DNA of 64,000 bases from Escherichia coli. Lineage in GTDB: Bacteria; Pseudomonadota; Gammaproteobacteria; Enterobacterales; Enterobacteriaceae. A program made the position numbers and the translations under genes. Location of the stretch: assembly GCF_016026235.1 (NCBI RefSeq), contig NZ_CP065613.1. The stretch is one strand, 5' to 3'. The notes beneath the pieces were generated by a model. The model was not told where the DNA came from. It did no database searches and was given only the letters and a program-made list of their open reading frames with translations. This document shows, piece after piece, positions 978 through 55,556 of the stretch (within the stretch, counting starts at the first letter, position 1; each line of letters begins with the position of its first letter).

Positions 978-1787
978 TTACTTCTGGCACTGCCGACAAT
1001 AAAACGTTGCCCGCTGCGCATGTTTAGTCGCCACAATCGGCGTACCGCACACCCGACAGGGCTCGCCTTTTCGCCCGTAAACCTGCAATTCCTGAGCGAA
1101 ATAGCCCGGTTTACCATCACTTTGCAGAAAATCTTTCAGCGTTGTACCACCCTGCTCAATCGAACGCAGCAACACCGCTTTAATCACCCGAGCTAACAAT
1201 TCACACTCTGCCAGCGACAGTGATGACGCCAGCCGATCCGGATGGATCCCCGCCGCAAACAGTGATTCGCTGGCATAGATATTCCCTACCCCTACCACCA
1301 GCTTGTTATCCATCAGCCACGGTTTAATCGCCGTTTTTTTCTTCGCGCACTTCTGATGCAGATACTCACCATTGAAATCGTCGCTAAGCGGCTCCGGTCC
1401 AAGATGAGCCAGCACGTTGTGCCCTTCCAGCTCTTTGGTCCACAGCCAGGCACCAAAGCGGCGCGGATCGGTGTAGCGCAGCACTTTGCCGTTGCTCATC
1501 ACCAAATCCACATGGTCATGCTTTTCAGGGGGAAGTTCTTCTGGAAGGATGCGCAGGCTGCCAGACATCCCCAAATGAATGATAATCCAGCCCTCAGGCA
1601 GCTCCAGCAGCAGATATTTAGCCCGCCGCTGCACGCTAAGCACTGGTTGGTCGCTTAAACGGTAGATCTCTTCTGAAACCGGCCAGCGCAAGCGTCCGTT
1701 GCGCACCACCGCATGAAGAATGGTTGCACCAACGAGATGCGGTTCTATGCCGCGGCGGCTGGTTTCAACTTCGGGTAATTCAGGCAT
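978..1787 (-). CDS. mutM: formamidopyrimidine-DNA glycosylase (Fpg/MutM)
   Basis: 269 aa beginning MPELPEVE (N-terminal Pro-Glu catalytic motif) and ending in a C-terminal zinc finger CRVCGTPI...CRQCQ. Confidence 0.95.
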
Positions 1788-1836
1788 AGCATCTCCAGGA
1801 ATGAACAGATGCAGTCAATATGGGGGCAAGCAGATA

Positions 1837-1869
1837 ACAAAAAACCCCGCCGGAGCGAGGTTTTTTGTT
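1837..1869 (-). terminator. rho-independent terminator after rpmG (hairpin plus U-run on the minus strand)
   Basis: Minus-strand CCUCGC-UCCG-GCGGGG hairpin followed by UUUUUUGUU, directly downstream of the rpmG stop. Confidence 0.5.
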
Positions 1870-1884
1870 ACATCAAAGCGAGAA

Positions 1885-2055
<171 letters not shown>

Positions 2056-54698: not shown

Positions 54699-54742
54699 GC
54701 TCCAGTCCTTTTCTTCTGGGCCGACTTTCCGGGAGGTGCTTA

Positions 54743-54780
54743 AACGAAAAACCCCGCCCGGTTTGCGCCGGCGGGGTTTT
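54743..54780 (-). terminator. ilvB attenuator terminator
   Basis: Minus-strand AAAACCCCGCCGGCGCAAACCGGGCGGGGUUUUUCGUUU hairpin plus U-run between the ivbL leader and ilvB. Confidence 0.6.
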
Positions 54781-54803
54781 GGAATCGTGTGTTGTTCCAG
54801 TCC

Positions 54804-54902
54804 CTACGGCGCATTGCCGACGACCACCACCACACGCACGACGACCACTGCGGCGGATGGCGCAGTTGGTAGTAGTTTTGCGTTGAACATGGAAGTAGTC
54901 AT
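54804..54902 (-). CDS. ivbL: ilvB operon leader peptide
   Basis: Hand-translated 32-aa ORF MTTSMLNAKLLPTAPSAAVVVVRVVVVVGNAP with Val/Leu-rich regulatory codons. Confidence 0.85.
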   Translation of the reverse strand: MTTSMFNAKLLPTAPSAAVVVVRVVVVVGNAP

Positions 54903-55028
54903 TGGGGACCTTGTTGGTTTTGTGTTTAACAATATTTATACAAGCACAGCTTTACAGGGGAGACAATGGAAAATTTTTCAGCAAGGGAAAATTGAGGGGT
55001 TGATCACGTTTTGCACTGAATTGCAGGT

Positions 55029-55170
55029 AACAAAAAACCCCGCCGGAGCGAGGTTTCGTCAGCCGCCTGCGGCTGGTAACCGCAAAGCACACTGTATTAT
55101 GTCAACACTGAAAGTATACCTGTTCCGCGCAGAACGCGCAATTTCGGCACGAATTTTGACGTATTTAGTA
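55029..55170 (-). ncRNA. istR: IstR small RNA (antitoxin RNA of the tisB type I toxin system); boundaries approximate
   Basis: Minus-strand terminator at 55029-55058; the segment GCACACTGTATTATGTCAACA (55087-55107) is a near-identical direct repeat of 55345-55365 in the tisB leader, as needed for a divergently encoded RNA to pair with tisB mRNA. Confidence 0.45.
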
Positions 55171-55232: not shown

Positions 55233-55466
55233 AACTTCTATAATATCACTGTACGCAATGTGTTATGCGGGGGCCGCATCGTTACCCGGCGCACTAAGTC
55301 CTGGCTGAAACGGGTGGTGCCGTCAGCGCCTTAACCCCGCGTGAGCACACTGTGTTATGTCAACAAGCACAACGTTTCTCCTTGAGATACCGCGTGCACA
55401 ACAGCTGGCAACAGGCAGCGGAAAGGTACGTCAGCTGGCAGTGCTCCTGAACCACAGGAGACGCGT

Positions 55467-55556
55467 ATGAGCCTGGTGGATATCGCCATTCTTATCCTCA
55501 AACTCATTGTTGCAGCACTGCAACTGCTTGATGCTGTTCTGAAATACCTGAAGTAA
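55467..55556 (+). CDS. tisB: type I toxin TisB (SOS-induced membrane peptide)
   Basis: Hand-translated 29-aa ORF MSLVDIAILILKLIVAALQLLDAVLKYLK. Confidence 0.85.
   Translation: MSLVDIAILILKLIVAALQLLDAVLKYLK

Follow-up and report, generated by a model that had tools for sequence, protein, structure and literature searches.

Genomic context of the two terminators

Within the 64,000-nt stretch of Escherichia coli DNA analysed here (the window), two minus-strand transcription units end in the same short block of sequence, one in the intergenic region between rpmG and mutM and the other at the 3' end of the small RNA gene istR, upstream of ivbL. The features on which the analysis relies are the following.

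978-1787, minus strand: mutM (fpg), on the same strand and 50 nt downstream of terminator 1
1830-1863, minus strand: first copy (copy 1) of the shared 34-nt block, between rpmG and mutM; RNA sense AAACCUCGCUCCGGCGGGGUUUUUUGUUAUCUGC
1835-1870, no strand assigned: near-perfect 36-nt palindrome at site 1, whose 5' arm UAACAAAAAA pairs with the tail UUUUUUGUUA
1839-1844, minus strand: U6 tract of the rpmG terminator (from the sequence)
1845-1860, minus strand: rpmG terminator hairpin, a CCUCGC/GCGGGG stem that includes one U.G pair and is capped by a UCCG tetraloop (from sequence and fold)
1885-2052, minus strand: rpmG (ribosomal protein L33), the last gene ahead of terminator 1
54804-54902, minus strand: ivbL (ilvBN leader peptide), the next same-strand unit downstream of terminator 2
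55023-55056, minus strand: copy 2 of the shared 34-nt block, with the tail GUUACCUGC in this strain and one difference from copy 1
55032-55161, minus strand: istR small RNA gene, Rfam RF01400 (144.8 bits against a gathering score of 45, full length 1-130)
55038-55053, minus strand: istR terminator hairpin, identical to the rpmG hairpin (from sequence and fold)
55467-55556, plus strand: tisB toxin gene, divergent from istR

Copy 1 begins 21 nt past the rpmG stop codon. At both sites a G+C stem-loop followed by a U-tract lies at the 3' end of a same-strand transcription unit, and a consensus scan placed a terminator-like site on the minus strand at each. The minus-strand RNA of both copies reads AAA-CCUCGC-UCCG-GCGGGG-U6-GUUA(U/C)CUGC, so that the first-pass annotation, which had read CCUCGC-UCCG-GCGGGG plus U6 at the two loci, was correct by both sequence and folds. 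The 49-nt RNA of the rpmG 3' region folds at -21.6 kcal/mol (z = -5.7), with A6/U6 flanks that lengthen the stem, and the 3' half of IstR folds at -25.7 kcal/mol; no shuffled sequence was as stable in either case. The plus-strand versions of both copies contain a C.A mismatch and are weaker than the minus-strand folds (-17.5 versus -21.6 kcal/mol at site 1). With regard to bidirectional termination, site 1 is near-palindromic and has no convergent gene end there, while site 2 has no plus-strand T-tract. Neither a promoter nor a known DNA-binding motif was found in the shared tail by consensus scan and inspection by eye.

Copy 2 is the terminal hairpin of the istR family (RF01400, the tisB antitoxin; family consensus aaaCCcCGCUcCGGCGgGGuuuuuU). 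Copy 1, in contrast, does not mark a second istR gene: at rpmG the score is 30.5 bits, below the gathering score of 45, and the terminator part alone aligns. A separate direct repeat is found on the plus strand of the istR region, GCACACTGTATTATGTCAACAC at 55087-55108 and GCACACTGTGTTATGTCAACAA at approximately 55345-55366; read on the minus strand, its first copy is the antisense region of IstR-1, and the second is the target of that region in the tisAB 5' UTR. istR thus appears to be built from a copy of its own target and a look-alike of the rpmG terminator.

Extent of the shared block

The 29-mer TAACAAAAAACCCCGCCGGAGCGAGGTTT occurs on the plus strand at exactly two sites, 1835-1863 and 55028-55056, as the first-pass annotation had claimed, and alignment showed the identity to be longer than claimed rather than shorter: the repeat finder extended the match to 34 nt with 33 of 34 positions identical (1830-1863 versus 55023-55056). 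The interval of 1837-1869 originally assigned to it starts and ends slightly off the 29-mer, the 29-mer itself being right. The 34-nt pair is the sole long repeat of such quality within the window, and no third site for TAACAAAAAACCCCGCCGGAGCGAGGTTT with up to three mismatches was found in the 64,000 nt, where 100 shuffles gave an expectation of 0. At the single differing position the window strain has T at the rpmG copy and C at the istR copy, whereas K-12 and TG1 have T at istR as well, making the repeat identical at 34/34.

The similarity ends at the edges of the block, as local alignment of the 80-nt flanks outside the 34 nt was no better than that of shuffled sequences (p = 0.68 upstream and 0.93 downstream). 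A MAFFT alignment hinted at further upstream homology (GCTTTG..GT.AC), which we rejected, given that it is not kept in the istR genes of Citrobacter and Enterobacter and that the flanks behave as shuffles. An inverted-orientation copy was likewise discarded as the primary relationship, with 80% identity against 97% in the direct orientation.

Both copies coincide with mapped RNA 3' ends

The first-pass annotation had proposed 3'-end mapping at the two loci, and published data are positive at each. Term-seq of K-12 MG1655 (Adams et al. 2021, PMC7815308, Supplementary file 1) reports primary 3' ends for rpmG at 3811202(-), with 940,057 reads in LB at OD 0.4, and for istR-1/istR-2 at 3853116(-), with 236,300 reads. 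In each of the three growth conditions the two ends correspond to one another to the nucleotide (...GGGGUUUUUUGU) (PMC7815308). The Term-seq strain differs from the window strain, with an identical hairpin, and its istR tail is GTTATCTGC; in the K-12 catalogue TTTTTGTTATCTG occurs at rpmG and istR only. Transferred to the window, these ends place the rpmG RNA 3' end at position 1837 (...UUUUUUGU, from 3811202(-)) and the 3' end common to IstR-1 and IstR-2, which is formed by copy 2, at position 55030. Copy 1 is the intrinsic terminator of rpmBG, ahead of mutM, and copy 2 is that of istR-1/istR-2, ahead of ivbL. Seven of the shared bases, tail positions 3-9, come after the mapped RNA 3' end, and the identity there is consequently a property of the DNA and not of the RNA.

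Both copies have the make-up of canonical Rho-independent E. coli terminators, the synthetic archetype AAAAAACCCCGCTTCGGCGGGGTTTTTT among them: an A-tract ahead of a 6-bp G+C stem with a UNCG tetraloop, and then a U-tract, with the RNA 3' end in or just after the latter; nothing mechanistic differs. The only odd point in this comparison is that two natural examples are alike at 33-34 of 34 positions, including the U.G wobble and seven bases past the RNA end. At each copy, the 6-bp G+C stem with its UNCG-type tetraloop forms in the nascent RNA, and the U6 tract then weakens the RNA-DNA hybrid, so that the transcript is released at ...UUUUUUGU, as in the K-12 Term-seq map. The rpmB-rpmG copy would act as a leaky stop or attenuator before mutM; the istR copy is where IstR-1 and IstR-2 both end, and it would shield the ivbL-ilvBN promoter region.

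In 1999 Gifford and Wallace reportedly described a strong attenuator between rpmG and fpg (mutM) in the radC-rpmB-rpmG-fpg operon. Copy 1 resembles it in position and strand, and from its position we take it to be the same element. The very high 3' end count at rpmG would fit a strong but leaky stop ahead of mutM. A further hairpin of similar flavour, the ivbL attenuator AAAACCCCGCCGGCGCAAACCGGGCGGGGTTTTTCGTTT, is located at 54728-54789, approximately 285 nt downstream of the istR terminator; it has a strong K-12 Term-seq 3' end at 3852831(-) and gives weak Rfam matches to P6 and STnc310 through the terminator alone.

Contribution of generic terminator design

To separate the hairpin core from the remaining positions, we used a relaxed pattern, AACCYCGCNNNNGCGGGGTTTTT, in which 19 core positions are fixed and 15 are free, and scanned genome contigs with it; the matches listed comprise at least 120 loci. 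These matches span many phyla, for example Mycobacterium, Pseudomonas, Bacteroidia and bacteria of the candidate phyla radiation, and include 3-6 loci per genome in four enteric genomes, with fliC, rplY, ompA/sulA, the tyrT-repeat terminators and proM among the enteric same-core loci. UNCG-type loops dominate the matches listed (TTCG 24, CTCG 11 and TCCG 7). The core hairpin is a generic optimum that recurs independently in many phyla.

Nevertheless, design accounts for the core and not for the whole identity of the E. coli pair. Of the 15 free positions, the 149 non-enteric same-core terminators listed share 1-11 with the E. coli 34-mer, with a median of approximately 6, whereas the pair agrees at 14-15. 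Similarly, the T of the U.G wobble is present in 12 of these 149 terminators (8%) and at both loci in every genus examined. Since the pair stands above this baseline, its identity exceeds what convergence on a design would give, and the original statement that it is unlikely by chance thus holds against same-core terminators as well as against shuffled sequence.

The same core hairpin also occurs in tandem. Yersinia aldovae carries three copies at 115-nt spacing in apparent tyrT/rtT-type repeats, and such tandem arrangements were also seen in C. werkmanii and Enterobacter sp. Bisph1; in these repeats the terminator has clearly been multiplied by duplication. In Candidatus Yanofskybacteria and Pseudomonas sp. 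EaCA-3, at least six loci per single genome have the AACCCCGC-N4-GCGGGGTTTTT core, and a few pairs within these genomes are alike at 13-14 of 15 free positions. Reuse of near-identical terminators inside one genome may therefore be common beyond the enterics too.

Conservation across Enterobacteriaceae

Both copies were found at fixed orthologous positions in six genera, and in the genera examined istR always adjoins tisB and ivbL-ilvB. The forms observed at each locus are as follows.

rpmG, E. albertii: UCCG loop, tail GTTATCTGC
rpmG, Salmonella-type loci and C. werkmanii: UUCG loop, tail GTTTTCTGG
rpmG, Kluyvera: CUCG loop, tail GTTTTCTAT
rpmG, K. pneumoniae: stem CCCCGC, UUCG loop
rpmG, Cedecea and an Erwinia-like genome: diverged stems
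istR, C. werkmanii, Enterobacter and Klebsiella: CCUCGC-UCCG-GCGGGG-U6-GUUUU...
istR, Salmonella: UUCG loop, 3' stem GCGAGG
istR, Leclercia: UUAG loop

Judged from these sequence comparisons, each terminator is old and has been kept at its own locus across the Enterobacteriaceae, so that this is no recent duplication. The likeness between the loci extends to other genera, with the Enterobacter istR and Citrobacter rpmG terminators agreeing at 13 of 15 free positions and sharing the U.G wobble (T). The ancestral rpmG and istR forms, as reconstructed from few taxa and with the Escherichia istR states taken from E. coli alone, would already have been alike at approximately 32 of 34 positions: AAAAACCUCGC-U(U/C)CG-GCGGGG-U6-GUUUUCUG.

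The terminator of proM, in the argX-hisR-leuT-proM tRNA operon, comes close to this form. It reads GAACCCCGCTTCGGCGGGGTTTTTTGTTTTCTG, that is GAACCCCGC-TTCG-GCGGGG-T6-GTTTTCTG, and agrees with the ancestral rpmG/istR form at 13 of 15 free positions, but differs in having a perfect C-G pair in place of the wobble. In E. coli it still has the UUCG loop and the GTTTTCTG tail; it took no part in the Escherichia-specific change considered below. Window 1801-1890 (minus strand) gives a sub-threshold match to the Rfam rimP-leader family, whose consensus carries UUUUUGUUAUcUg, the tail of rpmG and istR, directly behind its terminator.

Copy number and variation within E. coli

The 34-mer is present in 4,390 of 5,426 complete E. 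coli genomes, at a median of two places and a maximum of three, and in no case on a plasmid. Two copies per genome, at most three, and at fixed positions do not constitute a repeat family, and the genome-wide count thus disposes of the concern, raised with the original observation, that the element might be a common repeat. Genomes without the 34-mer mostly have an rpmG terminator with a CCCG loop, a variant found in 1,314 genomes, always at one place in each and never at istR; at least 278 genomes combine this CCCG loop at rpmG with a UCCG copy elsewhere. The rpmG terminator loop (window 1851-1854) is polymorphic, with UCCG in most genomes. At the istR tail, the C allele of the window strain occurs in approximately 1,866 genomes and K-12 carries the T allele; the C allele, present in all divergent haplotypes sampled, is probably ancestral in E. 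coli. Strict ongoing concerted evolution within E. coli was rejected on the grounds that the CCCG allele is restricted to rpmG and the C/T polymorphism of the tail has not been homogenised.

The tisB-istR segment (window 54980 to approximately 55800) is variably present in E. coli, and in approximately 1,270 of 5,420 genomes the match stops at 54979. Strain AR_0081 has approximately 170 bp with the small gene ysdE in its place; this strain also has the CCCG loop at rpmG and three nearby SNPs in the rpmG-mutM spacer. Salmonella, Klebsiella and Leclercia all carry tisB here, and Enterobacter has istR next to ilvB; the absence of tisB-istR from some E. coli is thus probably secondary. In E. coli 1296KP, unrelated sequence (TGTGCACAGAAAACCCCCAGCTAGGCTGGGGGTT...) begins exactly at the istR terminator tail, right after GGGGTTTTTTGTT, which is probably the result of an insertion or rearrangement. 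A few E. coli genomes have the 34-mer at three places; in one strain, CUPF09, the best match to the rpmG-mutM spacer is the 34-mer only.

Origin of the identity

In Escherichia, the two terminators depart from the ancestral forms as follows. At rpmG, a UUCG loop gave way to UCCG, the form that istR had ancestrally, and the tail went from GTTTTCTGG to GTTATCTGC; the E. coli istR tail changed from GTTTTCTG(C/A) to GTTACCTGC, so that both tails moved from GUUUUCUG to GUUA(U/C)CUGC. When reverse-complemented, the new tail TTTTTTGTTAC reproduces the rpmG 5' arm GTAACAAAAAA exactly: its GTTAC complements GTAAC in that arm, and istR offers no such template. With the T-to-A change, the flanks of the rpmG hairpin pair over 11 contiguous positions, compared with 5-9 in other genera, while istR has 4 pairs and no matching 5' arm. 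Derived states shared by the two loci were found in E. coli (loop C, tail A4 and tail C9) and weakly in Salmonella (UUCG loop at both loci); none were found in C. werkmanii or Klebsiella, or among the variants segregating within E. coli (CCCG, C/T). As the changed tail bases lie outside the RNA, we infer an origin at the DNA level.

Taken as a whole, the account that we consider likely is that of two ordinary terminators, each conserved at its own locus, which resembled one another ancestrally and were brought to identity by Escherichia-specific changes. The ancestral likeness could have arisen through an old duplication, most simply by the young istR gaining a copy of an older rpmG-type terminator, or through convergence on a favoured design, given that the proM tRNA terminator is nearly the same; the rpmG and istR terminators are probably related through old copying, although the choice between these two sources is one that we infer. 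The extra likeness in E. coli may stem from one copy having been written onto the other. The small duplicated terminator module originally suggested for this pair fits the ancestral near-identity and the Escherichia-specific shared changes, but the core is generic and the duplication would not be recent.

As to the event itself, a quasipalindrome-templated change at rpmG together with short-tract gene conversion between look-alikes of 34-38 nt is the reading that we prefer, at somewhat less than even odds. Short-tract gene conversion and quasipalindrome-templated mutation (Ripley-type template switching) are known processes in E. coli, and the present case resembles paralogous short repeats with shared derived states, with a T-to-A change that perfects the rpmG inverted repeat. 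It differs from them in the shortness of the homology, about 34-38 nt, and in the 42-53 kb that separate the loci, and neither intermediate nor recurrent events were seen. Several points speak against copying. Its direction is ambiguous, with the loop pointing from istR to rpmG and the tail from rpmG to istR; the uninterrupted homology before the event would have been about 12 + 17 nt, and efficient RecA-dependent recombination usually needs longer homology than this. In addition, much of the identity could be convergent, as the core is generic, and there is no ongoing homogenisation within E. coli, nor any within the Klebsiella and C. werkmanii genomes. A broader scheme, which we put forward tentatively as less likely than not, is that rpmG, istR and possibly proM form a small paralogous family of terminator modules. 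In this scheme the 3' end of istR was copied from an existing housekeeping terminator, and a later exchange between rpmG and istR in the Escherichia lineage, joining short-tract gene conversion to a quasipalindrome-templated change, left GTTAC as a footprint of the rpmG 5' arm in the untranscribed istR tail.

Pure convergence with chance, in which the same optimal design (A-tract, CCYCGC/GCGGGG, UNCG, U6 and a T-rich tail) arose twice and no copying ever took place, seems unlikely to us. The recurrence of the design at unrelated loci and in different phyla, the dominance of UNCG-type loops and the presence of the same core in the enteric proM, fliC, rplY and ompA/sulA terminators all agree with it, as do the identity of the K. 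pneumoniae rpmG and proM terminators across AACCCCGCTTCGGCGGGGTTTTTTGTTTT and the retention at three loci of GTTTT at the start of the tail, a hint of selection on these bases. However, none of the 149 same-core terminators listed reaches even 12 of the 15 free positions, the wobble kept at both loci in every genus is infrequent among them, and convergence would have to produce, outside the mature RNA, two to three Escherichia-specific changes that coincide both in position and in the resulting base, for which independence is unlikely.

That a common factor keeps the two sequences identical, either ProQ bound to the hairpin base and A-rich 5' flank or a DNA-binding protein recognising GCAGATAACAAAAAA, is in our view very improbable. 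The IstR family is among the ProQ-associated sRNAs of Salmonella, and so is the rimP leader (PMC5391140); moreover, the rpmG 3' UTR terminator is a high-affinity ligand in Neisseria meningitidis, where A-tracts paired to the U-tail favour binding (PMC11912907), and the E. coli rpmG terminator has exactly such an A6/U6 extension. Yet the Neisseria rpmG hairpin is of another sequence, with the loop CUGU, and FinO-domain proteins read shape, namely the lower stem and the 3' tail, and not the loop sequence (PMC11912907). E. coli istR also lacks most of the A-tract, with GACGAAA left, and a literature search found no link between ProQ and the rpmG 3' UTR of E. coli or Salmonella. The seven shared bases at tail positions 3-9 lie outside the RNA, so that an RNA-binding factor cannot explain them; as for a DNA-binding protein, looking through the tail by eye, which is not a test, revealed no familiar motif. 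We found no evidence for the shared protein/RNA binding site that the first-pass annotation had offered as its other explanation. Finally, a dispersed or mobile short-repeat family (REP/BIME, ERIC, MITE-like or a transposable terminator cassette), which the sharp-edged 34-nt palindromic block and the variable presence of tisB-istR might suggest, has a negligible chance of being correct in view of the low copy number without plasmid copies in the 5,426 genomes, the fixed orthologous positions in six genera, and the left edge of the tisB-istR indel at 54979/54980, which lies 43 nt from the block start at 55023 and does not coincide with it.

Significance of the shared terminator

Both elements are ordinary, already mapped terminators of very common design, and no new mechanism is suggested. 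A literature search for the 16-mer in any form found no paper among those covered, and the sequence identity between the rpmG and istR terminators appears to have gone unremarked so far. The identity has no evident functional consequence and matters little for function. In practice, it calls for caution, because probes, primers and CRISPR guides designed against the IstR terminus will match the 3' UTR of rpmG as well.

The pair provides a clean natural example of how far unrelated terminators can match, and one in which design convergence can be separated from copying by means of the untranscribed tail and the same-core baseline. If copying is the true explanation, it would illustrate how parts borrowed from elsewhere can make up a young sRNA gene, and that homogenisation across tens of kilobases is still possible for tracts of approximately 35 nt.
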